NCBI GenBank assembly: GCA_044892505.1
Contig: CM097884.1
Span: 47,864,001-47,928,000 of the forward strand
DNA: 64,000 nt
Source of the DNA: Schmidtea nova
Taxonomy: Eukaryota
Direction of reading: 5' to 3'
Positions 6,357 to 43,174 of this stretch are shown here, piece after piece (position 1 is the stretch's first letter; every line of letters starts with the position of its first letter). Position numbers and translations under genes: made by a program. The notes beneath the pieces are model-generated. The model worked only from the letters and a program-made list of their open reading frames with translations, was not told where the DNA came from and made no database searches.

Positions 6357-6564
6357 TCTCAAAGGTCAAAATCCTTAATAAATATTTCACTTATATTATA
6401 ACAAAGAAAACGCATTTTATAGAAATTAACATCTTTTATTAAAAATAATCTAAAATTCGTCTGATTGCAGCTCATTTGGATCTGGATCTGGAAAATCATC
6501 AGGATCATCATCATCTGGATTATCATCTAGTTCATCAATAATGACATTGATTCCTAAATAATGT

Positions 6565-7085: not shown

Positions 7086-7162
7086 CCGTGGTTAAGATAG
7101 ATCTAGAACCGTTTGACCGATATAACTATGTCTTTCTAAACAAATCAAATCTTTATTCAATT

Positions 7163-13400: not shown

Positions 13401-14521
13401 TTTATTTAATAACTTTTATTTGGACTACTAAAATTTTTCAATTATGAGAATTTGTGATAAAAAAAAATAAATAAAAAAATTCATTAGATGAAATCCTATA
13501 TAATATTTTCATTATCAATATACAAATAATAAATCCCAAATAATAACAGTAAAAAATAACTAAATGAATCAAATAAAAACGGTGTCGACATGGGATGTCC
13601 AAAGGGCATGATTTTTTGGACCTCCCATACCGATAACGCATATATAATAAGATAAATATAACATAAAAATAAAATGAGGAAATCCTTACGCTCAGTGCGG
13701 CTTCCTAATGGGTTTTTCGGAAACAAAAATTGATTTTCTTGATTTTTTCGGTAAATTCTTGATGGGTCCGTTAACTGCGGCTCTCCTGATTAATTTTTTC
13801 TTTTTCAAATTGAAATTGAAATTCTGTAGATTTAGAAATACCAAAAATCTCAACCAAATAAAAAAAATTTCCACAAAAATTCTGATTATTGCCATTTTGA
13901 TGGCGGTATATATACCATCGATTTTGCGTTACCTTCACTAGTGTAATAAAACAAATTGTTCTAGAATTTTCTTTTTAATTTTTCTAAATTAATTCTAATG
14001 ATTTTCCAAAAATTAAATCCATATTTTTGTGTAATAATTTTTTATAAAACACAATTAATTTATTTTAATTCAAAATTTTTATTTTTGAATCGAAATTTGT
14101 TCGATTTGATTTAATTTACGATATTTCGATCAATATTAGTTCTTTTTATTGTTAATGTGAAATATTTTGATAAAATCACAATTTTCTGCTAAAATTTGGT
14201 TAAATATTTTCTGTACTGAGGTTTTATAACACAATTCTGTTCTTTATGGGCTTTTCAATGGGTTTTCCGCCTATTCTAACTTTCAAACGTTCTTCTTTTG
14301 ACGATTTTTAATTTTTCTCGAGATTTCAGTGTAAGGACTTGCAAATTTACAGCTAGCGCGTACTCTACTGGTTGATGTGTTTTGAGTCCACTTAACCTTT
14401 TGGTGTTTTCCACTTAATCGCTTGGATTTTTAATGGATGTTTGGGTTAAAACTGAATCTTGGGCGCTCTCTACCTATGGGGTTATCGCTTTATTAAAACA
14501 ATTTGTAGTTTTTGCCCAACA
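10445..14521 (-). mobile_element. Giant solo-LTR-like unit A1 (4077 bp)
   Basis: Ends TGGTGGG...CCCAACA, ATTT on both sides (10441-10444, 14522-14525), colinear with 51176-54920 in conserved blocks. Confidence 0.75.
11086..11354 (+). CDS. Putative two-exon 73-aa ORF inside unit A1 (intron 11142-11188)
   Basis: Splicing a 47-nt GT-AG intron gives an open frame MPTNPTNRAPIFHKSPKK...SHE*; a similar arrangement lies at the equivalent offset in A2. Confidence 0.3.
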
Positions 14522-14533
14522 ATTTCCAGCCTT

Positions 14534-14539
14534 TATATA

Positions 14540-14602
<63 letters not shown>
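14534..14602. repeat. (TA)n microsatellite
   Basis: Seen directly. Confidence 0.95.
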
Positions 14603-14607
<5 letters not shown>

Positions 14608-15289
14608 TTATCAGTTTTTCAACAATTGACATAATATTATATTGATATTATGGTCCGTATGGATACCCCTGTCGAAGATTCTGTTAATTTTAGGATTGAT
14701 TATATTTATACATGTAGATTCGAGGACGAATTTCAAATAAGGGAGGAAACATGTTGGATTGTTAAAATAATCAGAAACATAAATTTAAAATGCACAGATC
14801 TAAGCGCAAATCAATAAAAATACGCAAACAGGAAAAATAGTTTATTAGTAAAAATAAATTGACGAATTGAAAGGTGTCTAAGGAAAAAGCCGCAAATCCA
14901 CTTAGCGGAAACTCCCAATTTAATAAATCAGTTGACAGATCCATTAAAGCGACAAGGCACTATATAAGCGAAGAGCAATTTACCGACATTTAGTTGAAGC
15001 AAAACGTAAATATTTGAGTGAGATTTTGAACGGACAAAAAGGAAGCTTAAACGGTAATTACAAGTTAGAGTGCCGATTTACCAATTTTCTCTGCGTTCCG
15101 AAAAAAGAGATCTTCCAATGGGTTTTCTACCCTTACGCAAGAGTGCATATAACAGTTATAACTTTCGGTGATTGATATTTTTGTGATTGAATTGGAGAAA
15201 TAAAAATTATTGTGTTGGGTCTAATTTATTGTTGTGAAAGAAAGAACACGGCAGTCCGATACCAACCGACTATTCATTAATAACCCAAC

Positions 15290-16000
15290 AATAGTAACAT
15301 ATGAGTCATTGTGTCTTTGTCTAAGGGGGGCGGTTTTCTTCGAAAAAATATTTTTTTTAAAAATCTATGCCAAAAATCTGTATATAGTAACATATGAGTC
15401 ATCGAGTTTTCGTCTAGAGGGGTCTTTTAAAATTTTTGAAAAAGTTATTTGTTAAACAGATTTAGAAAAACTTAGAAAATGTCTTTGTATAGAGGAGGGG
15501 GGGGGTTGGCTAAAGAATATTTTCATGGGTGTAGATGCAAATGTCTTTGTTTTCTATATTAAATGATGAGTCATCGAGGGCTCACAACTTTTTTGATTGG
15601 TGTAGATGCAAACACGCACAATGTGACTGGTTTTTATTTGTGTGAAATTGACAAAAAACGTTGAAATTCCTTTGTTTTCTTAACCTTTACCTACTTTTCG
15701 ACTAATCAGAACAAAGTAAAAGCCAGTGAGTCATCGCGGGTTCACAATATTTTGTGGGAGGATGTTATCATCTGCAAAAATGAATTATCGATAGCAAGCA
15801 ACTTTTTCGATGGGTGTAGATGCAAACACACAATATGACTGATTTTTATGAATGTGAAATTTGAAAAAAAAACCGGAAAAAACCCTTGGTTTTCTTGACA
15901 ATGACCGGATCAAATCTTGATCGGGTCAATAAAGTCGATCAAAAGAATGACTTTTGGGTGGATGTTATCATCTGCAAAAATGAGTCATCAGGATTCACTT
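15290..16000. repeat. Degenerate tandem repeats with GAGTCATCG and GGTGTAGATGCAAA anchors
   Basis: Anchors recur several times with variable spacing. Confidence 0.5.
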
Positions 16001-16241
16001 CTACATACTATAGCATAGTTACTAAAGTGAACATTTGGAAGGATTGTTATTATTTCATTTCATATAACAGGGATGCTCAAACTGCGGCTCTTTAACATTC
16101 TTTTGTGGTTCAATAGTTTAATATGTAAATGAAATTTTATGAATTTTTTTTCACAACGCCTACGTTATTGTAATTAAGCTTAAATTTTTCATAAATAATT
16201 TTAAAAAGATATTTTTAAAAAATGCTTTTAGTCATTAATTA

Positions 16242-17565
16242 TTAGGTTGTCCAGAATAAAATCTCCGAATAATATATAATAATTTTAATTCATCATAACA
16301 TTTTTTATATAAAACATATTTCTTTATTTTAAAGTTCATTAGAAAGCGCTTTTTTTGAACTCAAATATTAACTACTAACAATTTAATTACTGAAACTTTC
16401 ATTTTCAAATAGAAATGTAGAATTTAGAAAATCATTATTTGAGAATTTTTTATTTATATGAGTGTAAATCTAAGAACAATTTATTTGAGGCGAAGAGGAA
16501 TATTAATAACGCTTTTGGGAGCGATACAGTTAATGAAAGAACTATTAGGCGTTGGTTTAAAAATTCTGATCACGGAGAAATTGATCTCGAAAATATGCCT
16601 CGTGGTAGACCCAATATCAAGCTGTTGGGAGAAGATTTACGTGAAGCTGTTGCTCAAAAATCAACAAAATCTGTTCGAGAACTTGCAATAAACCTGTTTG
16701 CCTCAATAATAACCGTTTATCACAATATAAAGACAATTAGTATAGTCAAAAAGCTTCAAAAATTGGTCTGACATGAATTGACTGAATTTCAGAAATTAAA
16801 CAAATTACAAACTTGCTTATCTCTTCAAGCATAACATTGAAAGTCATCTTTTCTTAATAATATTATTACCTGCAATAAAAATGGATTCAATATGATAATT
16901 TAAAGTGATCAGGAGAATGGTTGGATAAACATCAATGCCCAAATCAGTTTCCAAAGCCGGAAATACACCAAAAGAAAGTTATGCCCTCAGCCTGATGGTC
17001 TAAGTATGGTGTAATACATTATTGTTTTCTGAAAATGGGTAAAACAATCAATTCTGAAAGATACTGTGTAGAACTAGAAAAAATGCATGAAAAACTCACC
17101 ATTAGTCACCTTGCAATTGTTAATATAAAAGGTCAAATTATCCTGCATCATAACGCCAGACCTCATGTATCGAAAGTCACTGTAAAAAATTACACGACTT
17201 AGGATTTGAAGTTTTACCGCATCCACCTTATTTCCACCTTATTTCCACCTTATTTCCACCTTATTTCCACCTTATTTCCACCTTATTTCCACCTTATTTC
17301 CACCTTATTTCCACCTTATTTCCACTTATTTAGACATTTAAGTCTTTATATCAATAGCAGAAAATTCAAAGATTTGGAGGAGATAAAATCGACAGTTATC
17401 ACTTTCTTGGACTTCAGACATGAAACTTTTTTAAAGAAGGTATAGAAAAGCTCCCGCAACGATGGCAAGAGTGTATTAATGTTTATGGGTCATATTTTGA
17501 TAAAATAATAAATGTTTAAATATATTTGTATCCATTTTGCGGACATTCCATTCCCGACAACCTAA
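16242..17565 (+). mobile_element. Decayed mariner transposon (~1.3 kb)
   Basis: TIRs TTAGGTTGTC / GACAACCTAA with TA on both sides. Transposase remnants RNINNAFG, TIRRWF, HELTE, HQKKVM, LHHNARPH, HPPY, FHLF; many stops. Confidence 0.93.
17223..17331. repeat. 11-bp tandem repeat (CCACCTTATTT)x9 plus one variant, inside the mariner transposase
   Basis: Units counted directly. Confidence 0.95.
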
Positions 17566-18054
17566 TAATTATGATAATAAAAATAAATTTAGATTATAAT
17601 TAAAAATCTTGTGACTCTACAGTGTTTTACGATTTTCAAACATGGTTCACCATGCATAAAGCTTTGAGCACCCTGTCATGCACTGCAGAAATCAAAATAT
17701 ATTTCCCATTCAAATAAATTTTTTGATTAAAAACAAGTAAAATCAATAAAATAAACTGATGTTGTCTTAGCAACGCAAATAATGCAATGCAAAAGGCCAG
17801 CTATTGCCAAAAGCGTTTTAGAGTGTTTAACACGCTTTAATATTAATTTGTCACAGAAAATAATTGTATTTATTAATATTCCATGCTCAATTTCTAGTTC
17901 AATTATTTAAATGGTTTTGCAGAAATTTGTAGACGTCATTAAACTTTTTTAGTTTTAATTAATAATTGAACTCTAGTGACATTAATTATGATTATAGATA
18001 TAGTAAAATGCTGTTAAATGAACTTTGAAAAACTTTAGAAAGGTCTCATTGATA

Positions 18055-18323
18055 NNNNNNNNNNNNNNNNNNNNNNNNNNNNNNNNNNNNNNNNNNNNNN
18101 NNNNNNNNNNNNNNNNNNNNNNNNNNNNNNNNNNNNNNNNNNNNNNNNNNNNNNNNNNNNNNNNNNNNNNNNNNNNNNNNNNNNNNNNNNNNNNNNNNNN
18201 NNNNNNNNNNNNNNNNNNNNNNNNNNNNNNNNNNNNNNNNNNNNNNNNNNNNNNNNNNNNNNNNNNNNNNNNNNNNNNNNNNNNNNNNNNNNNNNNNNNN
18301 NNNNNNNNNNNNNNNNNNNNNNN
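18055..18323. other. Assembly gap (Ns)
   Basis: Run of N. Confidence 1.
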
Positions 18324-18771
18324 AATTTTATTACGATTCGGACGTTTTGTTAGTTGTAACAACTTTTTATTTGAGCTGATCTATCTAGTTTTAGAAAGGT
18401 TTTATCGGCCCCCGTAGGAAGGGAAATATGTTATTCATTAAAACTATTGGGGTTGTCTTAAATTGGTGCAAAATAAGGTGAAATGCACAGAAAAATAACA
18501 ATTTACAAAAATTGAAAAAAATTTTAAATCAGTAATTTTTCGACTGAAATGGGTATGAGCAGATGGCATGTAATGAGGCGAATACGAGTATAATAATAAA
18601 AAATCAATTTGGGGTCACTAGAAAAGGATATTAAGAAAATAAAAATTAATTAAAAATAACATAAACTTTAATTGCCTAATGGAAAACTCGAACTGACAAC
18701 AAAATAAATAATTAAATTCTTTCCTAAACCAGCACAATAGCCAGCTATAGAGTAAACATAAATTTGTTGGG

Positions 18772-19235
18772 AGGTAAGTGCCGGTTTTGATACTATTTTG
18801 AATTTTTAATACTATTTTGAATTTTTAATACTATTTTGAATTATTAAAAATTATTATTAATTATTAATTATTATTAATTATTATTAATTATTAATTATTA
18901 TTAATTAACTATTAATTAATTATTAATTAATTATTAATTAATTAATAATTATTAATTTATTAATTAATTATTAATTTATTAATTATTAATTAATTATTAA
19001 TTAATTATTAATTAATTAATTATTAATTTATTATTAATTTATTAATTATTAATTTTTATTAATTATTATTAATTATTATTAATTATTATTATTATTAATT
19101 ATTAATTATTATTAATTATTAATTATTAATTATTATTAATTATTAAAAATTTTGAATTATTAAAAATTAAAAATAGTATTAAAAATTCAAAATAGTATTA
19201 AAAATTCAAAATAGTATCAAAACCGGCACTTACCT
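18772..19235. mobile_element. Foldback MITE (464 bp) with ~66-bp TIRs and 6-bp TSD GTTGGG
   Basis: AGGTAAGTGCCGGTTTTGATACTATTTTG... is exactly inverted at the right end; GTTGGG at 18766-18771 and 19236-19241; interior almost purely A/T. Confidence 0.9.
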
Positions 19236-20221
19236 GTTGGGATTATACATGATCGTGTAAAATAGGAGAAATGAAAAATGTACAAAATTAATAAAACATT
19301 AAATTCAAATTTCAAAAAGGGTAAAAATTCATTTTTACCGGGGTATAAAGTGGCAATCGATGGCAAATTGAAGGTTGAAAATGAATAATAATTTTAAATT
19401 AATTAAGGGTCCCTGGGAGGGTATAGAACAACAATACGAATTAATTAATTAATTGATCTCATTAATAATCTAATTTGATTCACCAATTATTATGGAAAGA
19501 AACACAAATTGTCAGATTGATCAAGCCTAAATATTGCTTGTCGAAGTCAGAATTAGAAACTCGTAGTAGTAAGGAATTGGTATAACAAAAGTTAAGTATA
19601 AGAAAGAATAAAGTATAAGGAGAGTAAGATAGTGAAACTTAATCGTCAATCAAATTTTACGTTATCTAGTTGTATCCTTTAAATTATCTATTCTAAAATC
19701 TATTTGAATCGAAGGGTTTAAGAGAATTTGTTATTTGTCAAATAGTTTTAATTTGTTGAATCTTTGTTATTATCTAAAAGACACAAAAAGTCAAAACAAA
19801 AATTAATTCCCATCGAAACTAATAACCCAATAAATTAATAAGGAAAAGTTGGTGAGTTAAAAGAGAGATGTCGCCTGGCCGGTTATAATTGTTTTTAGAT
19901 AATTTGCGCTTGAATAGTTCCATTTGATTATTAGATTATCTAGAAAGAGACAGCGAGAACCATATATAAAGAATTACAATATTTTTCATTTTGCCAGTTG
20001 ATCGAAGAAAGAAAATCAAAATATTTGTAAAAGCGGTGTAGAGTTATAGCACCCCTTTGAGTTATCTAACTTGTCATAAATTTAAAGAAGTTCTGATCAA
20101 ATCCAAAAGTGTTGTTACGATATTGTTGAGAATTCTTTAGAGTTTTAAATAAATTTACTGTTTTGGGTGTCTTTATTTAATTAGCATAAAAATTCAGGTT
20201 TTGATATCAACTTTACTGAAG

Positions 20222-23200
20222 TGTTAGGCCAGCCAAATAGGGCCTGAATGCATATTAATGATAATTAATAAGTATATAAATTAAATAAATAAGGATGAAT
20301 TACCCTTAGTTAGAAAGAGATCTGCGAAATAAAACAAATTAATAAAAGCAAAGGTAAATAATAAGAGAATATTTTAACAGTAAGTACCTGCGAGTTATCA
20401 TTGAGAGCAGGGAGGGTGAGATATCTGAAAATAAATACATTTAAATTATAAAAAGCACGAATAATAAAAGTACATAAATGTAATAATCACATGTAAAATT
20501 ATATTAAGAATAAAAATACCTAAATGAAACATGAACAATTAATTGCAAAACAAACAATTACCCGAGAACGCAAGCCACCTGCGAAAGGGAAAACGAATAA
20601 AATAAAATAAATATTTTATAAAAAAACTTGCCCAATGGGAATGGAAGCAATTCCTGAAAAGGGAAGTGAAATAAATTATAAATGGATTAGAAAATAAATA
20701 AATATCTATCAATTAGCTTATGAATAAAGCCCTCTGATTGGCTGATTGAAATCCCGGATTAGTATAAAAACAGGCGTTCAATTCAGTATCATATACCTTT
20801 TTACACTATATTTTTTAGAGATTTCATTGTGATATTTTGCGATTTGCGATTAATTGTATAACAGTGTAATCAATTTCAATAAAGGTATATATTAAATTGT
20901 GTTTGTTTTATTATTTGATTATAGTATTATTATCGGTTAACCTCTCATTTTCCTAATATCATTAAGAGCACATCGTGATGGTCTTGCAACCTAATGGGCG
21001 AAAATTGCCTTCTCGTTCCGACTTTTTTTAGAAAAAGGGCGATAGGTCGACCCGGTGCTAAATACAGGGAGGGGTCCACATAGGATATTCGATATGTTTG
21101 TTTCATTAAATTGTTTATAAATGATAAATTTGGTCCCACCTGCGTAGTATCAAAGAACGTGAGCAACCCTAGGGCATTTGTTTGTTGACAGACGTTTAAA
21201 TCATTGTGAAAAGATAGGACCCCACATATATAGAGCATTTGATGCCGCAGTCATATGGCTGACAATAAGCATAAAGAATTCGTTTGATCGATTTTGTGAT
21301 ATTATCATGAAATGGATTTCCACATGCAACGTACAACAGAATGTTAAGAATTATTGATACAAACCATAGTGTAAGGATTTTAGATAAGTATGTTTGTATA
21401 AACACATGACAGTGATGGATAGAATATTGGCTAGCAACGCCTGTAATTTTCATGGCGATCGGAGTTTGATCTGACAAGGACTATAGTGGTTCCGCACAGG
21501 AGGGATAGCGCGGCGGAGAATTTATAATTAAAAATTACAGAGTATTGGGAAAGTTTAGTAAGCACAGCGGAAGTCACAGATGTAGATCGTACATACCATG
21601 GCAATTCTAGCGAAACCTAGGCATCAACTGCACATTTGAAATAGCGCCAGCACTCATGTTAATGGAGGTAATTTGAAAAAGGAATTGGGACTTCCTCTGA
21701 AATAAAGTCAATTGTGTTAAATTACCGTAGTGTCATTTTGAGAGAAATCATAAGAAAAGGGACAAAAGCTGAATGCTCAGAATTCGATTGAGTTGTTTAC
21801 TGAGTAATATCAAGAGATTACCAAATCGGCAACGTCGAATAATTGTCATTCGCCTGAATAAACAAAATTTCAATGCTAATATATAACCGGCGAACACACC
21901 GTGGTAGAATAAATTCAAACAATATAGTTTCGACATTTTTAGTTTTGTAAAATAAATCAGACTGTCAACATGTACTATAATTCAAAGGACACACCCCAAT
22001 TAACCTCCTTTATTTGGCGGTAGGGTGAATGTTTAATTTATTTTATTTTAATACAACAAAATTTTGGAAACTTTAACAAATGGATTAGCTAAAAACCATA
22101 CGAAGAGTACAACAGATCCAACAAATAGTCTATTTTCGAAATGGAAGAATCGACAGGCCGGCTCTCTGACCACTCAAGGACCTGCCATCAAATGTCCTCG
22201 ACGACGTCAACCACCACTTGTAGATGTGGCGAAATCAGTTTAAATCACCAGTCTCATTCGGGATATGGGAAAGAAAAGGCGAGGAGATATGGTATGAAGG
22301 TGAACCTTGATGGTCTTCCACCGAGATGAAACCCGATGTCCCCAAATGGTTCATAGTCATTCGAGACTAATCAAACGTGACACGATGGCTCGTATTTTTC
22401 CACAACATTAAAACCCAAGAGCTCAACACCCTCGGATTCATCTTATTGGAGAGACCTCAACTCTTGGTTACTGGGAAACTCCATGGATAGTCCAACTTAC
22501 CATTCAAGTTCAGAAAGAATAAAGAAAGCTTTCGAAGTGGGCAACCCAAATCCGAATTCATGAGATATTCCTCTACAAGGGTTATCTCTGATGGAAGCTC
22601 AACCCAATGATATATGCTGCAGATGGAATCGCTACAGCGAAAGCCGAATATACGCAAGATTGGATCTGCGACTGGAGATACAACGAGCCGGAGTCTATTA
22701 GTGATTCAAGTATAAATTGACAACCAATAACATTCCTGTGATTTGTGTGTTGTTTATCTTAGTTGTTAATCTACTTTTGATAGCTACGTGACGAAGTTTT
22801 GATGTTTGAGTTTGATCGATGGTGATGTGGTTGGTTCATATTTTCCAAATTGATTGGTTTGCTTGATCGAATGTGTGCCAGGTATACGAAGTTAATAAAC
22901 CAGGTTTTTTGCGATTACCTGAGGTATAGTAGGTGCTGAGGACAGAATAGACTAAATTTTAGAGTAGTGATGATTGACACGTAACATGTATATTTTTATG
23001 TCGTAGATGCAACGGAATTTAAAAAAGACTTAAGAATTGCAACAGCAGATTTCCAGACTTGGAGTCACGAATAAATCTTTAACTAGGAGGGTTGCTCATC
23101 TAAGGCGACTGAATGAGGACCTATACCAAATTGGTTCTCCCCATCAGCAATCCAAATTGCAATGCAAGAATGGACAGGTTGAATCCAGCCACAATTGAGT

Positions 23201-23913
23201 AGGGAACGGAATTGTCGGCGACCCGACTAGAATTAAATCAGTGCCTTAGAACAGTTTATAACGCAAGATCTCGCAAATCAAATTCGGGCAATCACGTTGG
23301 AGAAATGGACGAACAGAAGATTATGTTCAAGTGATACCCAAACGGAACTTGCATTCGATAACGATGTGGATCCTTCTATGAGTACGGAAAGCAACCAGCA
23401 CGTGAACGTTAGGGACAGAAAATGAAAAACGAAACAGGTTGGGAGCGAAACGGAGACGAGAACGCCTAGCATTCGAGGAACGGCTCAATATTCAATTAGA
23501 TTTACTGAGTGGGGTGACAGAAAGGCAATTTCTGGATCTGATCGAACGTGAGATGTTGAATAAATAAACATGTATTTTCAAACTGTGTTCAGTGTATGAT
23601 TTCAATGAGTTATAAATGATTTGTGTTGTTTGATGAAGTTATTTTACTAAATGGTAATTTTAGATAATTATTTCATATAAAGGGACAAGTGTACGACGAA
23701 GAAAGGTCTTCTATCGACCGAACGAACCAGTATGGGCAAGAGGGGAATAGTAACTACCTAGGTTGCTCACCTGCCCTTTTGACATACACCGGTTGGTACA
23801 GTTCAGGCATGAAGTACAATTAGGGGTATCTCACGGGCACCATTACGGGGTTTAGAATTTTATGTGGGTGGAGTTGCCTTAATACAAACATCAATAAACC
23901 ACCACACCCAACA
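20222..23913 (+). mobile_element. Giant solo-LTR-like unit B (3692 bp)
   Basis: gaag|TGTTAGG...CCCAACA|gaag (perfect 4-bp TSD). Carries the shared motif at 23707-23770, CCAAT/TATA-like boxes at ~20737-20770 and decayed ORFs. Confidence 0.65.
20737..20770 (+). promoter_or_regulatory. Candidate Pol II promoter of unit B (inverted CCAAT plus TATAAAA)
   Basis: ATTGG at 20737 and TATAAAAA at 20763, ~540 nt from the unit start; a TATA-like palindrome lies ~610 nt from the equivalent end of A1 and A2. Confidence 0.35.
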
Positions 23914-25753
23914 GAAGTAACCTAACAAACATATAACAAACAAATCTTCTTAAATTTCCAATAGTTACATTATTTGTAATAGTTATTGAATTTCTATATT
24001 TGCAACAGCCATCATACATTATTCCAACGGTTCTATCCTCTTTCTCCCATCTAGTATACCCGTAAATGCCTCACTGGACACATTCACATTGGTAATGCAT
24101 ATTGATTGTCGACGGGCTTAGTTGGTAGTGAGCGTGTTTCTTGCACTTTACCTCCAAACCGTGCCTCCTGATTATCTGTGTTAATAGAAGACATGAAATA
24201 TCGCTATGGGAACCCTGCCTTGCGCTTTCTGTAACCTCTCAAGACGACACTGTTAATTATCCGTTAAAATCGGTTCATTTCGCTGTCCCGTACATTATTC
24301 ATTAAAAGCCATTAGAGGGTATGAAAGCAAAATTATTTATTTATTTAATAACCCGACACTCATACTGGGGCATTTAAATTTTTTGGGATTTCAGAAAAAT
24401 GTTCAAATAAAACTGTGTTAATATAAAATAATATATATAAAATAATATAAAATACAAACCATATAAAACTTAAAAATTTAAATTGAGACTAAAACTAATT
24501 AAAAATTAATTAAAATTAAAAATCAATATTTTGAGGGTGGAAGAGGTATGATAGAGTAGCAAATAAAACGCTCAAGATAAATATATTAAATATAATTTGG
24601 CGAGGGTCCCAAAGTTAAGGTATTTTAAAAATAAAAGTAATTAAATATTTGAGAAAAATTAGATAACCATTCTTGTTCAATAATAACAATTCTTGGGAAC
24701 CACCACTGACAACATACATAGTCCAAAAAATTCAATTTATTTTTGGGATTTAAACAATAGTTAGATGTGAAACAAAACGCTCTATAAAAGGAGATACCAA
24801 AATACGACAAGCGCCAGAAAATAATAGAGAATTAAGAAGCAAACAGAGTCAGAACTTGTTATTGAATTAATGATTGAGAATTTTAAAAAGAAGAATTGTT
24901 CCTTCCCAAAGCATTATCAAATAGTTCATATTTATTAAATTTATCCATATTTATTGACTGTCAATATCGATTAGTTTTACGATTGAGTAATTGTATTCGC
25001 GTAATTTGATAAAAATGACACGCACAGTTAGCTAATTAATTCCTATCTGTAACATTTAAATATAAAACCAACACTTCCATACAAAAGTGGTTTATAGTGA
25101 GTAAGGAGAAGTGAGCGCTCTGACACAAGCCAATTATCTCTAACCTATGTAATAATTTTCCAGTGACCCCTCTGAGATTTTTTGGAGGGGTTTACAAAAA
25201 TTATGTGAAACTACATTGCTGTTATCACTTTATATATTATAAAATACGTTATATTCAGAATTTTATTATGTAACCGATGATTTAATAATTTTATGCTTTA
25301 ATCGATGCCGAAATGCTTAATTTTTTTTAATTTAATTTTTCAAGTTTTTGCAAAAAGTATAAAATGTATTAATTTTTTCGAAATTTAAAAAAACTTTATG
25401 GAGAATTTAAAGCCCACCGACAATTTACAAGTAAAAAGGGTCGATTCCCACAAAAATGGTCGGAATTCAATAATTTTTATACCAATCTACTGAGAATGAA
25501 ATGGAGAACAAAAAAAGATTTTAAAAATTAAAAAATGAAAGTTTTGTCTCATCCATTATAATTTTACACTTTAAAACATTACTCCTGCAATTTCCAAAAA
25601 GTAAAGATTGGTCAGAATTCAATAATTTATATACCAAAATACTCACAATTTACCGATCAACAACAAGAAATTCATAAAAATTATAAAAAACAACAAAAAC
25701 ACAAAGTACTTTAAAAATAAATCTTTATTCAAGAAAATCTAGTTTTTCGACAA

Positions 25754-26136
25754 TTACTTTGTATTGTAGAGGTCACCATAATATGCCTTTCGCATTTCGG
25801 CCACCAAAATATGCACTGATTGTTGTCGTTTGAAGTCATGACAGAAAACGCATCTATTGGTACATAAAACTTTCATTGAGTCTTTACATACCACACAATT
25901 TTCGAAGCAATTTTCGACGGCAGCCCCAAGCACAATATCTTAGTTCATTTCGAGCAGCTCTTCAATATTGATCCCCGTGTATTGGTATATTTTGTGTACC
26001 AACAATTGAAGGGCACAATAATCTAGATAACATTTAACATTTGGGTTAAGTACTTGAATCTTTTTGAAAACTACTTCGAACTAAATAATAAATTAATATA
26101 AAAATAAAAATAAAAAATTCTCTTACTTTTAGACAT
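25754..26136 (-). pseudogene. Small Cys-rich (zinc-binding-like) gene with a 46-nt intron, next to Polinton copy 2
   Basis: GTAAG...TTAG intron 26081-26126; exon reads FEVVFKKIQVLNP...CFENCVVCKDSMKVLCTNRCVFCHDFK with one internal stop. Confidence 0.45.
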
Positions 26137-26170
26137 TTTCAAATTTTTACAATCAAGGAATAACAATTAA

Positions 26171-26611
26171 TTAAATGTATTTAATTAATGTATTTATTTC
26201 AATAAAAATATTTTCCACATAATTTTTAAAATCCAAAGTTTTTATTCCAAGCATAACAACTTTGCTGCTTGTAAATATGTTGACACATATTGAATCAAAT
26301 TTATTTAGGTGTAATGAGCGGGATATTTCCTGTTCGAACCAGCAACGAAATTTCTTTTGCAATTAGTATAGATTAATAAATTTGCCGACATCAACCGTCG
26401 CAGTAATTGATTGAATCTCTAAATTTTAATCTTGAATTTAAAATCGTCCGGCTTCAATGGTTGTTTGCAACCCATTACCCGACACTTGCCAGATCTAAAA
26501 ACGATGATGAGGTACTTGCCGCTTTCCTCTGTAACTTTTTTGCGGTTTGCCACTAGGAAATATCATGTCGGGAACTAAACATTTACCTTTATAATTGATG
26601 TTGCTAAATAT
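26171..26611 (-). pseudogene. Divergent TATA-binding-protein-fold gene (two TBP repeats), disrupted
   Basis: Repeat 1 FSNINYKG...LIIVFRSGKCRVMGCK; repeat 2 IQSITATVDVGKFINL...FEQEISRSL...VNIFTSSKVVMLG; two frameshifts and one stop. Confidence 0.7.
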
Positions 26612-26689
26612 TTTTAAATAATTAAACAAATATAAACAATACTAATAATTAATTAATTAATTAAGAAATGGAATTAAGAAATGATGCCG

Positions 26690-27260
26690 TTTATCAAAAG
26701 GTTGGCCCATTGGGAGTGGGAAAACATTATTTGTATGTTCATTATTACAATCTAACATGTTTAAATAGATATTCAATAACATTTATTGGCACAAGGGAGT
26801 CGATGAAGAAAATGCATTGACTCAAGATCAGTTTTGTAAATTATAAATAACCATTATAAAATGGTTTGATAAAAATTGATCATCTAGATTACAAGTTGAT
26901 GTTATAATTATCGATGATTTGCATCAGGAAGCCAATAAAGAAAAGAATTTCAACAATTTATTTACAAATATAAGTAGACACTTGGGTGTTACAGTTATTT
27001 ACATTACTCAAAATTTATTCCATCAAGGTGGTAGTTATAGAACCCGAAATTTAAATGTACAATACTTGGTTATATTCAAAAATCTTTGAGATGTAACAAC
27101 TATTTATTTTATTGTAAGACATCCTTACCTTAATGATAGAAAATGTTTACTTGATTCATTTCAAGACGCAACTAAAATTCCACACGGATATTTTTTTTCG
27201 ACTATACACAACAATGTCCTGATGATTTTCGTATAAGACCTGACATTTTCAATAAAAAGG
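26690..27260 (+). pseudogene. A32-like genome-packaging ATPase
   Basis: Walker A GSGKT at ~26713-26727; Walker B IIIDDL; LFTNISRHLGVTVIYITQNLFHQG; RNLNVQYLVIFKN. Confidence 0.9.
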
Positions 27261-27479
27261 TATAACAGTTTATAAACAAAAATGAAATTGTAAAATTAAT
27301 TTATTAAAATGTCATTAAAAAACGTCATTGTTCAACCCGTTATTGGTAAACCTGATAAACAACAAGAAATATTAAACAAGGTTAAATAGATGTCATTAAA
27401 GAAGATTTCATTAAAAAAAGAAGACACAAATCAAGAAATCGATAAAAAGAAGAAGAAATGAATTACATTATAAGCAAAA

Positions 27480-27790
27480 CAAAGTTGCAAAAATTTGATA
27501 ATAATTAAAATTGAACGCAGTGTACCTTATTTTAATGCCTTGATAAAGGCATTAATAAACGTATGACAATTTTACAGGCTTTTCCCCCATTTGTTATTGA
27601 TGATTTTCTTGAAGTTATTGTTAATGTAATTTGTGGTAATGTAAATATTAGTAAAGCCAAAAAATATCTTTAATCTCTCATCAATACTAAAAATCGTGAT
27701 CTTCTATGTAGAGTTATTTATAAACAAAATGGTGGTTTCTTATGTACATTAATTTCAATAGTATTATCAGCTATAAGTGCATTTCATTGT
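27480..27790 (+). pseudogene. Small conserved Polinton protein upstream of the integrase (core-protein-like)
   Basis: EVIVNVICGNV and YKQNGGFLCTLISIVLSAI resemble the QxGGFL-hydrophobic motif of small Polinton proteins. Confidence 0.6.
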
Positions 27791-27886
27791 TAAATTCATA
27801 AATTGGTGCTAAAGTTTCAATAGATATTAACATCTTGTTGTGACAATGAAGGAAATATTATCCAAAAAGAGCAAACCAAAAATAAA

Positions 27887-28973
27887 TTGAAAAAGATTTG
27901 GACAAACCCAAAAGATCCTGGTTGGTTTGCTGGGGTAAATAAAATTTTAAAAAGAGTAAATAATTCAAAGAAAGATACACAAAAATGGTTATCTGATCAA
28001 TTGGCATATAGTTTAAATAAACCAATGTTTAAAAGATTTCCTACACGAAGTTATAAAACAATTGGTGTTGATGATTTATGGCAAATGGATTTAATGGAAA
28101 TGATACCTTTTTCAAAATTGAATAAAGAAAACAAGTATATTTTGATTGTTATTGATGTATTTAGGCGCTATGCACGTGCAGCTCCAGCAAAATCTAAATC
28201 TGCAAATGAAATGGCTGAAGCTATAAAAAACTTTATTTGTAGATGGGCAACCTCAAAATTTGCAAACTGATTTGGATAAGATTTTAATTTAATTTTAATT
28301 AATTTTAATTTAATTTTAATTTAATTTTAATTAATTTTAATTTTATTCTAGGTAAAGAATTTCATAATAGTAAAGTTAAAGAAATTATCAAGGTTATTAA
28401 TCATTACTTGGTATTTTCATAATTCAATGCAGCTGTTGTTGAAAAATTCAATCGAACTCTGAGAGATAAATTGAAAAGATACTTTTTTTTAAGGAAATAA
28501 ATACATGTTTTGCGTAAATTGATTTATAGTAATAATTATTCTCAACGTAAAAAAATACAGGGAAAGTGACCAATTGATGTTTATCCTACAAATAATATGA
28601 ATAGATAGTTATCTGAACAAATAAAATCAATAACTAAAAAACCGAAATACAGAGTAGGGGATCATATTAGAATCAGTAAAATCAATGGATTCCCTTTTAG
28701 AATTTTGACAATAATTGGAGCGATGAAGTTTATCAAATTTTGAAAATCTATAAAAATCAGAAACCGGTCATGTATTTTATTACCGATTCTGAAAAAAAAT
28801 GATATCAGTGGAAAATTCTATGAACAAGAGTTACAAGTCATTCCAGTCCCATCAGTATTCAGAATTCAAAAGATTTAAAAACCAAAAATGATTGGAAATA
28901 TAAACAATATTATGTTCAACGGCATGGATATGAAAAACCAACTTGGATATCTAGAAACCAATTGATTAAATAA
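27887..28973 (+). pseudogene. Polinton integrase with chromodomain, with a degenerate intron at 28276-28351
   Basis: LWQMDLMEM, YILIVIDVF, QTDLG^KEFHN, VVEKFNRTLRD, GKFYEQELQ; clearly homologous to 7456-8435. Confidence 0.92.
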
Positions 28974-28979
28974 ATATTA

Positions 28980-30697
28980 TGAAAGAAAACTAGTTTTCTA
29001 TGATTTTGCCTATTAATGCGTGTTCTCTTATTTATTTTAATAATGAAGCTAGTAATTATAATGTAGAATTTCAAGATCCGATTTATTTAAAAAATAATGA
29101 CGATATGAAAGTTTCTTTGATTGAATTTACTTTTGTGTATAATTTGTTCCCGTATTATAGTAATTCTTTTATTCAAATTGTAAAAGAAATTTAAGAAATC
29201 AATTATTTGAGAATCAAAAATGTAAGTAATGTATTCGAAGTTTTAAATTCTCAACCTAGTTCAGATACTGATGTATTTATTGAAAAATATGAAAATTTAT
29301 TGTTTGTTTGCCCACATGTTCCATTTAAAATTATATTTCCAGATCTCGAACATGTAAAATGTTATGGATTGGATAGTTAAACAATTATTAGTGAAAATGA
29401 TCATTGTCGATTAAAATTATTAATAATAATAATTATTGTGAATAGTTAAGGTCAATTAAGGGTTATGTTGTGATGAAATTTATTTATGATAAAGTATATG
29501 TTATTTATTAGTATATATTATTTATGTAGTGATTGTTTGTATTGGAAAAATGAAGGGCCCAGCCGAGTCACCAGTAAAAGTGTGTCGGGACAACTTGGGT
29601 GTATGTTGTGTACGTGCTTGTGGGTGTGAGTGTGTGCTTGCCTGTGTAAGAATGCAGAATCACAATTTTTATTATAAATAACAACTTTTAATTTAAATAA
29701 CAACTTTTATTATAAATAACAACACGTACTCGCGATTTTGCTGGGGATTAATATTTCATTCGTTAAATAAAAATCTTTTTCTTTTTGATTTCAATCGGTT
29801 GATAATTTGTTTTTGTATCTTCGAGAATTTTATAATTCGTTTCTTTAATTATTTTTTCTATTTGTCTTGGTTAATTGTCACTTTAATAATTCGTTAATTT
29901 CATATTTTCATTTCATATCTCCACTCTTTCATAATAATCGATTTCTTTTATTTTTGCGTTTGCAATTTCTATCGTCTGATACTTTTATGAAACTTTTACT
30001 GATATTTTCTTTAATAAATTCTTTATAGGCTTCTTTAAAACTGGCTAAATTAATTTAGTAAGCTGAAGGCATCTTTTAAAATCATTTAAATTTTTTTAAT
30101 CAATTTTCTTTAATTTTTCAAATTCATATAGTAATTTATATTACTATAGGAATTGATTTTTTATTTTCATAATTTTAATTTATTATGTTATTTTTTTAAG
30201 TTTTAAGTTAACCATAAAAAAGTGATAATAATAAACACAAGCATCACACAAAACACAAATAATTAACAACTAAAGGGATTACTATGTTCCCAAAACACAA
30301 TTTATCATAAAAATTGACATTTACTATAATAGATTATGACATTAAGACCGTTAATTATCATTATTTTCAAAAAGAATTATTCATTACGACATTACCTAAA
30401 TTGAAAGGATATTTAATGAAAATAAATCTATCTCCATTCAAAGAAATGAAACTTGTCAATAATGAATTGGTTATTGGCGATGTACGAGTTCCCCTGCTAA
30501 AATGAATTTGGATAAAAAAAATATGACTAGGGTGAAGTTGTATAAATTGAAATAAAAAACCCAATGTATTTGCCAATTTCAACATCAACTATAAACAACA
30601 TTGAAATCAATATTCGTGATGACAGTGGAAAATTAATTAAATTTTTAAAAGAAACAAACTTACATTTGACTCAGCATTTTCGTAAAATAAATGAATA
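28980..30697 (+). pseudogene. Minor capsid/penton-like gene 1, interrupted by unrelated sequence (~29520-30300)
   Basis: N-terminus ILPINAC...VSLIEFTFVYN; C-terminus VIGDVRVPLLK...IEINIRDDSGK...HFRKINE*. Confidence 0.72.
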
Positions 30698-31703
30698 AAA
30701 AAGATTTTTATGTTAATTTACCAAGTAATTCTTGCCCATTGACCCATCCTAATAAAAAAGCTGGAATATTTAATGTGGAATATCAAAATCCAATATATTT
30801 GGATGGTAGTTAAGAAGTTGCTCTTATGGAGTTTACTTTTGTGTACAATGAATTTCCATTTTATAATAGTTCAAGAATAAAATTTACTAGAAGCAATTTA
30901 CATTCCAGTTATGAATATTTCAATTTTAACAAAGAAAAGAATGAATATGAAATTAGTCACGATTCTAATTATTATTTGATGTACATTGACGGCCATATTT
31001 TAAGTGTAAATTTTAAATATTTTCCATTTCAAATAATATTCGATAGTGTTGAACAATCTCAAAAATTATGATTTAAAGAAAAAGCTGTGAATTTTGATAA
31101 TGAATTAAATAAAATCGTAATTAATAATAAAGAATTTGTTGATACTATACGATTTACTATAACTTATAATTACTCGGTTGAATAAACTGATAAATTTAAA
31201 GAAGATTTGATAATAAATGGTCTTACTCAATTATCGGATCAAATTGAGAGTTTTTATCCTCATCCATTTAAATTGATTGATATTAAAGAAAGAAAATTAA
31301 CTAAATTAATTCTTGAAGATGATATCAATTGTGTTAAATTTAGTAGAAATTTGACCAATTCATTAGTATTAGTAGATCAAGAATTTATAGAGAAAATTAT
31401 TGATGGCTTATATTATCCACAAGTCCTATATTTTCATCTGCAAATTTTCATCTATATGGATATAATTCAACCAATTCTTGTTAGTGACATGTCAGTTCCC
31501 CTATTGAAATGTATTTGGGTTGAAAAACATAGAAATGAAGATTAAGTACAAATTGTTGTGAAAATACAATGTACTTGCCTGTCAGTTCCACATATATAAA
31601 CAATATAGAAATCAATATTCATGACGACACTGGAAAAATAGTTAAATTTACAAAAGAAGGCAAGACTTACTTGACATTACATTTCCATAAAATAAATGAA
31701 TAA
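30691..31703 (+). pseudogene. Minor capsid/penton-like gene 2
   Basis: FYVNLPSNSCP...EVALMEFTFVYN...YMDIIQPILVSDMSVPLLK...IEINIHDDTGK...HFHKINE*; internal stops. Confidence 0.8.
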
Positions 31704-31990
31704 TACAAATATTATCAGTTTCTATAGCAACATTCAATCAGGTCGAGAATTAGCATATCTTGTAGATAAACAGTATAGTACTGGTTGGTTGAAAACAATA
31801 GGAAGATTTGCATTACCAATTCTCAGACATTGGAAATTTCGGTATGAAAACTGCCAATGGCGTGTTAAATAGTAATTCAAAATTTTTACCTGCACTAAAG
31901 TCCAGTGCCATTTCTGAAATTAAAGGTTGGTTACCCGATGTAATTCATCATTTGCCACAAGTTTTTAATAGTGACTGATTTGTTTAACGA
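31696..31990 (+). pseudogene. Small Polinton virion/core-like protein
   Basis: IQSGRELAY...QYSTGWLKTIGRFALPILR resembles the QxGxG...RxAxPxL proteins found upstream of Polinton major capsid genes. Confidence 0.55.
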
Positions 31991-32050
31991 AAATAAAATT
32001 AAACGAAATGGCAGAATTCTTAAGCGTAAAAAAATATGAAAAAACATCGA

Positions 32051-32636
32051 CCCGGCCTACCAAAGGTCTCCAGTCAGTAGTTATTTACATATTGCAGCTT
32101 ATAATGATCATGTGCAGTACAAATATGAACAGCAATAGGAACAAATGTCACCAACACCTTCAACATGCTGCATGCGCACATGTACACATACGCACTCACA
32201 CACAGACATTTACAGAATATGACTTCTCACACCAGGCACACATCAGTGATATCAGTGAGTCATGTTAATGAAGGATTGTCACTTTCTTAGAATTTGACTA
32301 CTCACACTAAAAGCACAACAGTGATAACAGTGAGTTCGCAAAAAGACTCCCATTGCCCGTAACGCCTTCGAACTGGAAACACATCTGCATGAGGAAGGGT
32401 CACACATCTCCACTGATTCACTGGCAAAAGTGGTCGATACAAGGCCTAAACGAGTGCGCCTTGTTATCCAGATGAAAGGTAATATAATGAAGTACTAACC
32501 CTCTCAGCACTACAGACATTCAGTATTCGTGTGTGTTTGTGACATTTGTTCCCCTTCCTGTTCATTAGAAGCGGTTCATTATAAACAGCAATATGTAAAT
32601 AACTGCCTGACTGGAGACTTTTGGTAGGCCGGGGTA
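32051..32636 (+). mobile_element. Internally deleted Tc1 derivative of the 43887-45331 family
   Basis: Same TIRs (CCCGGCCTACCAAA...TTTGGTAGGCCGGGGTA); left part matches ~43890-44160, right part ~45041-45331. Confidence 0.92.
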
Positions 32637-32676
32637 TAAACAAAAGAATGAAAAGATATGGAACAATATTTGAAAA

Positions 32677-33480
32677 ATGATTAACGCAAAATCTGAATTA
32701 TGTGTTTTGAACAGACCATCTCTACAAGAAGTGATTGAACAAGGTGCATTTGAAGATTTTTACCAAACAAATTTCAATACAGATCCTGGAACATCATCTA
32801 TTCAATTTTACATCAACGGATCTCAGACTGAATATTTAGATTTGAATGATATTTAACTATCTCTTCAGGTCAAAGTTGTAAACAAATCTAGTGAAAATTT
32901 GCGAATGGATGCTGATGTTACTCCCAATAATTTCTTTTTCAAACTCTTTTAAAAGAAGCTGTATAAATGTTTAATTCTACAAAGGTTGAAGGAGGAAATG
33001 ATACATTTACACACAAAGCCATGATTGAAACTATTTTCAACTACAATAATGATACAAAACACACATCTTTAACTCCAATGGGATAAAATGAACATGACCT
33101 TACTAGAAAACATGGATTGCAAAATCAAAGCCATTTTCAATTTGTTCTCAATTACATTTCTATTTCATGGAAGAACCCAAGTATTTATTACCAGATTTTA
33201 GTGTTCAAATTAAATTGACAAGATTAAACCTAGCCTATAGTTTAACATGCACAAAAATTGAACCTAAAATTGAATTATTAGAGGCAAAATTAATGGTTAG
33301 AAGAGTTCGAGTTGAACCATCAGTTTTGGCTGGGCATCAAATTGGACTTGGTACAAGAAATGCAATTTATCCAATAAAAAATATGGAAGTTGTAGAATTT
33401 TCATTGCCAATGGGTTCTTCATCATTTTAAAATGAACAAATCTTTGATTAGGGGCCATTACCAAACTTTATTCTTGTTGC
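32677..33480 (+). pseudogene. Polinton major capsid (double jelly-roll) protein, 3'-truncated
   Basis: AKSELCVL, EYLDLND, KAMIETIFNY, YLLPDFSVQIKLTR, AKLMVRRVRVEPSVL, AIYPIKNMEV. Confidence 0.88.
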
Positions 33481-33489
33481 AATAAAATT

Positions 33490-34330
33490 AAAAAAAGATC
33501 ATTTCGTCATATCCAAGGCCAGTCTTTTTGAATATAACGAATGATTTTTATCATAATTAGAAGTTTCCAATAATTTATCTCTGGTCATTGCTGGTAATAA
33601 TTATTTTAAATACAAATTGTTTTGTGGTTAGCAGAGTTTATTAAAATATAATAATAAGTTAACAATGTTAAGCCTTCTCCGCAATGTTTATTTAAATGAA
33701 ATAATAAAAAGATCATGATCACTCCAATATGAAATTCTTTCCAATTGACTTCCTGCTTCTTTCTCAATATTTTCTTTCTCCTGAATTCTGGAGAAAAGAA
33801 AATATTGACCGAATACTGAAAATTATAAATAATGTAAATATTTATACGAATATTAAATTATTTATATTATCATAGTTTAAATTAAGTAAATGAACCGACT
33901 CATACGTACCCGCATCGCAACAAGATGGAAATACTAACAGCAAGTTAACAACCCAGAAGGTCAAGAAAATAAACAACAACAAAAAATCATTTTAATACAT
34001 GCAGTGATTTTTCTCCTTGACTGAGAATACATTGATCGTTGAATAACATTTATCGAACATAATTTGAAAAAAATGAACCAATAAACTTATGAATGTGCAA
34101 ACTATCAAACTTGCATACTTTCTATGAATAGAATTATACCGTATCTCCGAAAATTTGACCAGCGATGTTCTCCGAATATTTTTCTTCTCAACTGGTGAGA
34201 GATGTTGATCTTTTGTTAACAAAATCTTTAATATTTTCAGAAAGAATTTTTATTCTCAAGAGTGTTAAAAATAATGAAAATGACATATATATATACCATT
34301 TTCACATCATTTAATTCAAGTGATGCATTG
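33490..34330 (-). pseudogene. pPolB remnants, convergent with the capsid gene
   Basis: LLPAMTRDKLLETSNYDKNHSLYSK at ~33500-33610 aligns with LLTAMISDCLLDTSNYDPNYPLYSR of copy 1; weaker motif-B-like sequence at ~34100-34300. Confidence 0.55.
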
Positions 34331-41240: not shown

Positions 41241-43031
41241 CTAATTGATTTGCTGAAGAGCTATGTTAAATTTAAGAACGTCTATCAACTTCATTCCATA
41301 TTCACTTTTCAGATTTCCGTATAGAAAATCTGGAGATTTTGAATTCAAGTCTACCATTGACATAATCAACCGACCATCAAACGAAGAGAATTTAATTTTA
41401 AGATGTTCTAAATTGTGTTTCACCAGCCATTTTTCAACGTCTTTAGTGGTCCATTTGTTAATTTCCGAACAAGTATCAATTGTAATTGCGTTAGCGTCTC
41501 GACTTTCTAAATGTGTTGCTTCGTTTGCAATGGCAGTTTTCGGCACAATTAAAGCTTCAGTGTCATTCATGAAAAGCGTTATGTTATTTAAAAGTCCAGA
41601 AAAAGACTCGTTGAAGTTTCGTCGGTCACTGAATTCATAATACGTCTTGCTACCCATTATGATTCCCAGCCAACTCATTGGTTTATATTTAAATTCGACA
41701 ATTAAAGGAACAATTGGTTTCTTTAAGGAAAAGGCATATTCGGCTTCAGTGCGACAATTAGGACTTGTTCGATATGATTCCGATATCGCCATTACAAAGA
41801 TTTGAGAGTTCTCAATGCCGTCTGCCATGGCTTCAAGGGTAGAACCTTTCATCTGGTCTACATCGATCCAGACATTAATTTTTGACTTTAACAATTCATC
41901 TCGAATCGACAAAACTGTCGCCTTATTAGCCCAAGAATAGCTGAGAAACACATCGAATTTCCATTTTTCTTTAGCTGCTTTCAACTTCGATATTTGTGCC
42001 GACTTCAGCCTCTGTTTAGATTGACCTTTACTGTCGATAAGCCACGAGATTCCTTCGAAGCATTTTTTAATTTTAGATGACGGATGGCTTTCGAAAGGTC
42101 TTATCAAAGAACTTAACTTAAAGTCGATAATCAAAGTCTGTTTGATTTCTTTATCAAAGCAGAGATTCCACAAAGTCCCGAGACACTTCTCAATGTCATC
42201 ATCGCAACTCGGATTTGCAATTATATCAATTATTAATTGAATGCCATTTTCATTGACAATAGACTTCTTCATGTTGTCATTCGCTGAAAGGCATTTCAGG
42301 CCGTTCACCAGCTCCCAAATAGCGAATCCATTATTGCGTTTTTTTTTGTTTTCCATGGCACTTCTGATTTGACCGATTAGCAAATTAATGGTGTTTTTTC
42401 CTTCTTCAAGCAAATGCAACTCATTTTCCTTTACCAAACAAGCCAATGTCAAAATAGATACCAAACCTATGAAATCCGAATCATTCATGTGAACTAATTC
42501 CACTAGTCCTTCTTTCAAGTCTTGAGACTGAAAGATTCCTTCATAGCCAGGTACTCGAACGACATTGTGGATGATGCTTATAGAGCTTTTCATCACATAA
42601 TAAATGTTTGTACTTTTCAAGTTCTGGATGTAAGGTTTGTGGAGCACATTTGTGATTAACAGCTGAGGTAGTTTTGTGTTGATTATACTATTGGCTATTT
42701 CTTGGGTCGTGTCACAATAGTTCCAGAGACCATTCAAAGCATAATATGTAGAAAACCAAATCGTATCGTTGTTGAAAAATCCAACATCGTTAAATTTACA
42801 AATAACTTCTGCTATAATGTTTACATAATCCAGTCTCATTAATTCAGTAGTTATAGCTTTTAAATGAGTTTTGAGATCAAAATATGATTGAGAAAGATTT
42901 TGAAAAATGTGGTAATCTGAAATCTCAGTTAATGGATCTTTTATTTGACTTATTTTTTCTAGTGTTTCCTTTATGAAGTTCACAGCTTGTTGTGCTGAAA
43001 AAGATTTGTCGTAATATGGCATAGCTGTGGC
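41241..43031 (-). CDS. ARM-repeat / TIR / SAM-like protein (5' end lost in the gap)
   Basis: About 595 uninterrupted codons: ARM-like helices (ALNGLWNY, LKCLSANDNMK, LGTLWNLCFD), TIR (FDVFLSYSW, VWIDVDQM, YRTSPNCRTEAEYA, KPIVPL, WLGII), C-terminal SAM-like WTTKDVEKWL. Confidence 0.9.
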   Translation of the reverse strand, partial: ATAMPYYDKSFSAQQAVNFIKETLEKISQIKDPLTEISDYHIFQNLSQSYFDLKTHLKAITTELMRLDYVNIIAEVICKFNDVGFFNNDTIWFSTYYALNGLWNYCDTTQEIANSIINTKLPQLLITNVLHKPYIQNLKSTNIYYVMKSSISIIHNVVRVPGYEGIFQSQDLKEGLVELVHMNDSDFIGLVSILTLACLVKENELHLLEEGKNTINLLIGQIRSAMENKKKRNNGFAIWELVNGLKCLSANDNMKKSIVNENGIQLIIDIIANPSCDDDIEKCLGTLWNLCFDKEIKQTLIIDFKLSSLIRPFESHPSSKIKKCFEGISWLIDSKGQSKQRLKSAQISKLKAAKEKWKFDVFLSYSWANKATVLSIRDELLKSKINVWIDVDQMKGSTLEAMADGIENSQIFVMAISESYRTSPNCRTEAEYAFSLKKPIVPLIVEFKYKPMSWLGIIMGSKTYYEFSDRRNFNESFSGLLNNITLFMNDTEALIVPKTAIANEATHLESRDANAITIDTCSEINKWTTKDVEKWLVKHNLEHLKIKFSSFDGRLIMSMVDLNSKSPDFLYGNLKSEYGMKLIDVLKFNIALQQIN

Positions 43032-43174
43032 NNNNNNNNNNNNNNNNNNNNNNNNNNNNNNNNNNNNNNNNNNNNNNNNNNNNNNNNNNNNNNNNNNNNN
43101 NNNNNNNNNNNNNNNNNNNNNNNNNNNNNNNNNNNNNNNNNNNNNNNNNNNNNNNNNNNNNNNNNNNNNNNNNN
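43032..43174. other. Assembly gap (Ns)
   Basis: Run of N. Confidence 1.

Follow-up and report, generated by a model that had tools for sequence, protein, structure and literature searches.

A decayed gene on the minus strand of a Schmidtea nova contig (26171..26611 of the window, which is the whole stretch of 64,000 nucleotides analysed here) raises the question of whether a protein with a TATA-binding-protein (TBP) fold belongs to the host or to the mobile element around it, and what such a protein would do there. The reading we consider probable is that the gene is a broken TBP-fold gene of a Polinton and that the protein made from intact copies serves the element as a late-promoter factor. 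Measured against the open copies (144 codons), the window copy has lost its start codon (absent at ~26610, where open copies start), shifts frame twice (near 26540 and again near 26420), and is interrupted by one in-frame stop at 26363-26365. The motifs quoted in the preliminary description are present on the minus strand at this place, distributed over two frames, but two of them differ from the family-conserved form as a result of the decay of this copy. The C-terminal piece, with an X at the stop, matched Pfam TBP (PF00352) with 25.2 bits (E 1.5e-5; curated cut-off 22.9), and the N-terminal piece gave a weak match (E 0.033). Of the two TBP repeats noted earlier, the N-terminal one is partial, and both of its helices are gone. 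The window copy is 82% identical to the open copy L019 over 138 compared codons (dN/dS 0.26 for the window pieces); the family retains a functional gene, of which the window copy is a dead version. A 13.7-kb stretch (window 13964-27700), which includes the broken TBP and ATPase genes, recurs ~34 kb upstream (C3:47844001-47857437; L078, L079) with 99.3-99.9% identity. The repeat is either a segmental duplication of recent origin or a duplicate produced by the assembly.

The window's own genome (G000, 1.25 Gb) yielded 16,173 first-look candidates in a search with the TBP-like gene. The best 150 were scored, and the 146-codon frame was uninterrupted in 133 of them, a proportion to be read with the tendency of best matches to favour open copies. 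The open copy L019 (protein P0002, 144 amino acids) served as the query for the follow-up. P0002 reached 50.1 bits against Pfam TBP and matched 35 TBPs among the PDB sequences (best E 1e-11). Its AlphaFold2 model, built from a 17-sequence alignment, has a pLDDT of 93.8 and contains helices only at 81-87 and 129-143, both in the C-lobe. Foldseek returned 44 PDB matches at E<=0.001, with TBP in every row listed. In VIA-align, the model was superimposed on solved TBPs with a Z of 13.0 (144 aligned positions, i.e., all residues; rmsd 2.4 A), and the next fold reached 6.6. The predicted structure shows the 144-residue protein as a two-lobed TBP saddle, so the proposed TBP fold was borne out by both the Pfam search and the model.

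The gene had been described as lying head-to-head with a Polinton packaging ATPase, and this arrangement was found at all 30 ATPase loci fetched from G000. The distance from the expected TBP start to the first ATPase start, previously given as ~80 bp, is 56 bp and corresponds to an AT-rich spacer between the divergent genes (26612..26667). The Polinton copy in the window is truncated and decayed and extends from ~25100 to ~33600. Downstream of the TBP gene lies a decayed small Cys-containing ORF (25754..26130, minus strand, limits approximate) without a Pfam match, which is co-oriented with TBP in all subfamilies inspected. The genes described next are all on the plus strand. The decayed A32-like packaging ATPase (26668..27283, end approximate), an open copy of which scores above the Pox_A32 cut-off, is followed by a decayed, basic (K-rich) putative core-protein gene (27309..27790, end approximate; a related copy matches Adeno_PX) and a decayed rve integrase with chromodomain (27857..28970). 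The next gene (28979..30695), which contains ~0.9 kb of foreign DNA and has no Pfam match, is named first putative minor capsid (penton-like) gene after its position and size. It is followed by a decayed gene tentatively named second putative minor capsid gene (30691..31700), a decayed small conserved ORF (31696..32033; 135 codons in open copies), and a decayed putative major capsid gene (32677..33502) that ends at about two thirds and owes its name to size, position, and conservation. ATPase and integrase are present and pPolB persists as scraps only; neither a protease match nor recognisable element ends were found in the window element.

An AT-rich, intron-like insert splits the integrase gene at ~28277-28351. 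Short AT-rich GT-AG inserts of this kind occur at the same integrase codon in two subfamilies (window 28277-28351; L062 7930-8060; L144 3130-3260), and the integrase ORF of the metagenome relative L089 is continuous. The putative intron points to nuclear Pol II transcripts and differs from the intronless ORFs reported for vertebrate Polintons (PMC8097293). Elsewhere in the window, a further Polinton relic (6537-9168), which belongs to another subfamily and has an internal deletion, carries a pPolB end, a penton-like piece, an integrase, and a small ORF. A long minus-strand ORF (41241-43232) resembles a helical-repeat protein with a C-terminal part that we take to be TIR-like. The strongly strand-skewed region 55256-63346 (minus strand), with long coiled-coil, aspartic-protease-like, and ankyrin-like ORFs, is probably a large retroelement.

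Related copies of the TBP-like gene are located in elements with pPolB, an rve integrase with chromodomain, an A32 ATPase, a PX-like basic protein, and a protease, together with three putative capsid ORFs, two for minor proteins and one for the major protein. Pfam matches were obtained for pPolB, rve integrase, A32 ATPase, and adenain protease; the capsid ORFs, conserved in all lineages, have fitting size and place and no Pfam match at E<=0.1. One related copy (L067/L068) has 1.3-kb inverted terminal repeats of 95% identity; its ends read AGTAG, and the target is duplicated over 6 bp. Three other TBP-bearing places have inverted repeats without clean ends. At another place, a 3.66-kb inverted repeat of 99.3% identity (L063 692-4342 and L064 4188-7847), far beyond the usual length, doubles the pPolB end on both element sides. 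At least five subfamilies are present in G000, with TBP proteins 55-74% identical between subfamilies.

A word-index search returned 12 relatives, and a profile search listed at least 150 clusters at 50% identity, mostly short proteins of the 144-175-amino-acid TBP type. Among 63 metagenome loci, 58 belong to the family (family counts exclude the five weak metagenome matches L138-L142 and L061). A core Polinton gene was found on 33 of these 58 contigs, a core or accessory gene on 48, and a core gene on 17 of the 19 family contigs of at least 4 kb. The gene order varies in the metagenomes: TBP precedes the ATPase on the same strand, follows the capsid-protease block, or lies head-to-head. In a distant TBP-bearing lineage (L124, L125, L128, L131, L135), genes for phospholipase A2-like, KilA-N, and C2H2 zinc-finger proteins were observed; its TBP is longer (165-171 amino acids), and its upstream box is the one described below. 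In IMG/VR, the TBP alignment retrieved one distant TBP, and queries with ATPase, capsid, and pPolB gave no match; the phage records contained none either. The TBP-like gene is real, widespread, and, as the preliminary description had presumed, element-encoded: many copies are dispersed in G000, stand beside a Polinton ATPase wherever this was checked, and have linked relatives outside the genome.

ATPases of TBP-bearing loci range from 32 to 100% identity, and TBP and ATPase distances are correlated (Mantel, rho 0.64, 0/2000 permutations, 19 loci, with one locus counted twice as L048/L074 and a frameshifted ORF at L107). The TBP-like gene is under purifying selection, with a dN/dS between subfamilies of 0.10-0.25 in 8 of 15 pairs (dS was saturated in the other seven); the ATPase values are 0.04-0.08. 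Host TBP and its paralogues are located at other places in G000 (L031-L037, seven of 30 PF00352 loci fetched). Two divergent host paralogues, L033 (C1:473.81 Mb) and L034 (C2:358.71 Mb), have long open frames, are intronless, and are sisters in the tree; F99 and F116 are missing from L033. In a 61-row tree, a branch with 100/99 support separates the 46 family rows from the host TBPs and others of cellular type, which agrees with the earlier view that the gene is not host TBP. The donor cannot be named from this tree, since it is unrooted, covers 165 columns, has long branches, and contains no named giant-virus TBPs. A recently captured host TBP pseudogene, carried along as a functionless passenger, would fit the broken window copy and the existence of intronless host paralogues. 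However, the selection and distribution data refute it and leave it a probability close to nil: most of the best matches are open, dN/dS is low, the family stands apart from host TBPs across the 100/99 branch, and TBP distances follow those of the ATPase.

The amino acid residues may indicate what the protein does. They were counted in 137 family rows of at least 125 amino acids, for a minority of which Polinton linkage was examined, and in 12 canonical rows, with yeast numbering transferred via alignment to an indel-free canonical TBP. The DNA-wedging phenylalanines F116 (131/137), F190 (136/137), and F207 (135/137) are retained, as are N69, P191, and the TFIIB-contact glutamates E186 (125/137) and E188 (135/137). 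Elsewhere among viral TBPs, most of which come with a TFIIB of their own, these two glutamates are only ~40% conserved (PMC7221094). The N-lobe repeat is only partly retained; its strands are present in the P0002 model and both helices are absent, although they persist in part in about one third of the rows. F99 falls in a gap in 136 of 137 rows and was lost with the N-lobe stirrup according to the sequence alignment; without F99, the N-lobe lacks part of its wedge, and the bending of DNA may be different. K138 likewise falls in a gap in 132 of 137 rows; the basic N-lobe cluster of TBP binds TFIIA, TAF1, and Mot1 (PMC7221094). The base-reading face is changed at V71N (92 of 137 rows), V122R (132), T124M (136), N159S/T (137), I194R (102), V203C (101), and L205N (135), and V161T/S is also changed and fixed in the family. 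I194, V203, and L205 are the residues of a yeast altered-specificity TBP mutant that accepts TGTAAA (PMC1636458), and most of the other altered residues are on a published DNA-contact list (PMC12529657, Table 1). With fixed changes at three positions that alter the specificity of yeast TBP, the family offers a natural experiment on DNA reading by TBP. We infer that the altered saddle would have a new DNA specificity, with TFIIB docking kept and regulation lost.

The regions upstream of the virion-module genes were searched by eye and by an unbiased hexamer count (93 non-redundant windows, 70% filter). ATAAAC was the top hexamer, present in 82 of 93 windows versus 9.3 expected in shuffles and 5 on the antisense strand; Fisher p-values for the box are overstated because the upstream windows are mutually related despite the filter. 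The full motif is (T/C)ATAAAC(A/G). ATAAAC was found on the sense strand in 22/22 ATPase and 11/11 major capsid windows, many boxes lie 31-41 nt and some 70-110 nt before the ATG, and 11 of the 93 windows lack the box. In the window, TATAAACA lies upstream of all seven plus-strand element genes. As a candidate late promoter, it is located ~36 nt before the ATPase start (26631..26638), and it recurs 38 nt ahead of the basic core-protein gene (27271..27278), ahead of the integrase (27719..27726), the first (28899..28906) and second (30590..30597) putative minor capsid genes, and the small conserved ORF (31595..31602), and 42 nt ahead of the putative major capsid gene (32635..32642), always on the plus strand. 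Other genes carry the box in 8 of 62 cases (TBP 5/46, pPolB 0/3), and their top hexamer is CCAATC; a canonical TATA is present in 16 of 46 TBP-gene windows. A TAAGA box was not enriched (5/93 virion-module windows), and the herpesvirus late box TATTWAA occurred in 10 of 93 windows versus 82 for ATAAAC. Two other sources of the box were rejected: a polyadenylation signal, as the base before ATAAAC is A in none of 80 aligned boxes, and codon constraint, as boxes lie in each of the three reading frames and in non-coding spacers as well.

Elements without TBP were sought for comparison. Via a distant ATPase, all 30 loci obtained carried TBP, and a PF21738 search revealed one TBP-less Polinton lineage in G000. 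TBP matches are present in four of its 20 stretches; all of them belong to adjoining elements from the first family, and none is inside the lineage's own elements. The box was found in 3 of 47 ORF windows of this lineage, a comparison confounded by phylogeny and gene class, since the control is one lineage in one genome and its windows cover all ORFs of at least 110 codons, not only virion genes. The lineage (L197-L216, e.g., C3:40019000-40038999) has a PF21738 capsid, short inverted ends, and 6-bp duplications; its genes often start directly after a TATAAAA run, and several copies are located inside or adjoining TBP-bearing Polintons.

A host protein (TBP, one of its paralogues, or a forkhead factor) might recognise the box, with the element TBP doing something else. 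ATAAACA matches the forkhead consensus RYAAAYA, the host carries several TBP paralogues, and TATAAAC is one base off TATAAAA, so that host TBP might read it weakly. However, the other forkhead form, GTAAACA, occurs in 1 of 93 windows versus 70 for ATAAACA, canonical TATAAAA was found in two, and the box begins with C in 25. Since the box is also strand-specific, clustered at a TATA-like distance, and conserved across distant metagenome lineages, we regard host-factor reading as unlikely. The matching upstream box backs the suggestion of the preliminary description that the TBP-like protein would be an element-specific transcription factor.

We propose a one-protein late-gene switch that likely uses host TFIIB and Pol II. 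The TBP gene would be read first, from a host-type promoter. Its product would bind and bend the YATAAAC box via the altered saddle and dock host TFIIB through the two retained glutamates (E186, E188), and host Pol II would then transcribe the genes for ATPase, core protein, integrase, protease, and capsid proteins. With its N-lobe helices lost, the protein would be released from control by TFIIA, TFIID, and Mot1. No RNA polymerase match was found in TBP-bearing elements, and none for TFIIB among 56 neighbour ORFs scanned (48 from TBP-bearing loci), a scan that a very divergent TFIIB could escape. G000 contains 14,001 candidates for TBP versus 25 for TFIIB (PF00382), none of which is dispersed like elements. 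The host TFIIB gene is split over exons; TFIIB-like host genes of 299 codons in a single exon are clustered at L224-L228 (C2:71.2-72.8 Mb), with more TFIIB paralogues at L219-L223 and L226.

The same residues could belong to a decoy or repressor that sequesters TFIIB or blocks TATA promoters and so damps host or early viral transcription, a function in keeping with a retained TFIIB stirrup and the loss of F99 and of the N-lobe regulatory surface. A decoy would need neither family-wide fixed base-reading changes nor a matching box ahead of virion genes, and we consider it very unlikely. A DNA-binding role outside transcription, for example in packaging the genome, bending it, or replicating it at the terminal repeats, is, if anything, less likely still. 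TBP-like folds do occur in rolling-circle initiators (Z about 6.5), and the TBP gene often adjoins the ATPase. Nevertheless, such a role is at odds with the retained TFIIB-contact glutamates and with the varying neighbours of the TBP gene between lineages.

Returning to the late-gene switch, we lean, if only slightly, towards a broader statement: a broad clade of animal Polintons may run the smallest known viral late-transcription system, in which a single TBP of 144-175 residues, its saddle rewired to read a YATAAAC box of its own, would recruit host TFIIB and Pol II and be indifferent to TFIIA, TFIID, and Mot1. Polinton particles have not been observed (PMC8097293). A self-encoded TBP with a matching box would offer a direct handle on gene control and particle formation in Polintons, consisting of one small protein and one 7-bp site, and a route to cells with the late genes on. 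If true, viral TBP mimicry extends from herpesviruses and giant viruses to integrating elements of 15-20 kb, and the pair would represent a natural orthogonal TBP-promoter system and a switch between transposon life and virus life.

The elements share pPolB, integrase, ATPase, protease, putative capsids, terminal inverted repeats, AGTAG ends, and the 6-bp target duplication with the Polintons/Mavericks described in PMC8097293. TBP is outside the core genes named there, and the terms TBP and TATA have no match in its main text, in line with the preliminary description, which did not know TBP as a standard Polinton gene. In print, the closest record is a label: 'TBP' stands in figure legends of Starrett et al. 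on MELD viruses with adintovirus-like PolB (PMC8502044, Fig. 5; preprint 10.1101/697771). One or more midsize linear dsDNA viruses with kinship to Polintons were seen to have a TBP-like gene, recorded by a legend abbreviation that names neither the virus nor its kinship to the Polinton TBP family, and the passages on it contain no analysis of promoter, residues, or function. Term searches of PMC10748475, PMC8097293, and PMC12220804 gave nothing relevant, supplementary material of PMC8502044 and of PMC11131425 (one file apiece) contained no TBP match, and the literature within view (figures, subscription papers, Repbase, and preprint supplements lie outside it) contained no description of a Polinton TBP beyond the legend label.

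The Polinton protein is a member of the TBP family and not a canonical TBP. With cellular TBP/TRF and archaeal TBP (PF00352) it shares F116/F190/F207, N69, P191, the E-P-E stirrup, and, in the model, the two-lobed saddle (Z 13). It differs from them in being ~35 residues shorter, in the reduction or loss of the N-lobe helices and stirrup, and in changed base-reading residues at at least seven positions, with ~25% identity in the structural alignment. The TBP-like factors of Nucleocytoviricota have a viral TBP fold as well, and the P0002 model matched viral models in BFVD with E down to 6e-8 at no more than 19% identity. Such viral TBPs are mostly accompanied by a viral RNA polymerase. They mostly occur with a viral TFIIB and have variable stirrup residues (PMC7221094), whereas the stirrup of the Polinton TBP is conserved.

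A close functional parallel may be the TBP mimic of beta- and gammaherpesviruses. ORF24 of KSHV comprises ~750 amino acids, has four phenylalanines, binds Pol II directly, and works with five more viral factors; its model was called incompatible with TFIIB (PMC12529657). In both systems, a nuclear DNA virus or element without its own RNA polymerase has a TBP-fold protein whose saddle is more polar, and its virion genes carry a variant form of the TATA box. Unlike ORF24 with its TATTWAA late box, the Polinton protein has 144-175 amino acids, lacks F99 and a known partner, retains the TFIIB glutamates, and is matched with the box YATAAAC; unlike ORF24, BcRF1, and UL87, it consists of the TBP domain alone, without the Pol II-binding N-terminal domain of the six-factor-complex type. 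By analogy, the Polinton TBP would work like the herpesvirus mimic, with a late box and host Pol II but outside the herpesvirus family, and its system is probably TBP-driven viral late transcription in a new form.
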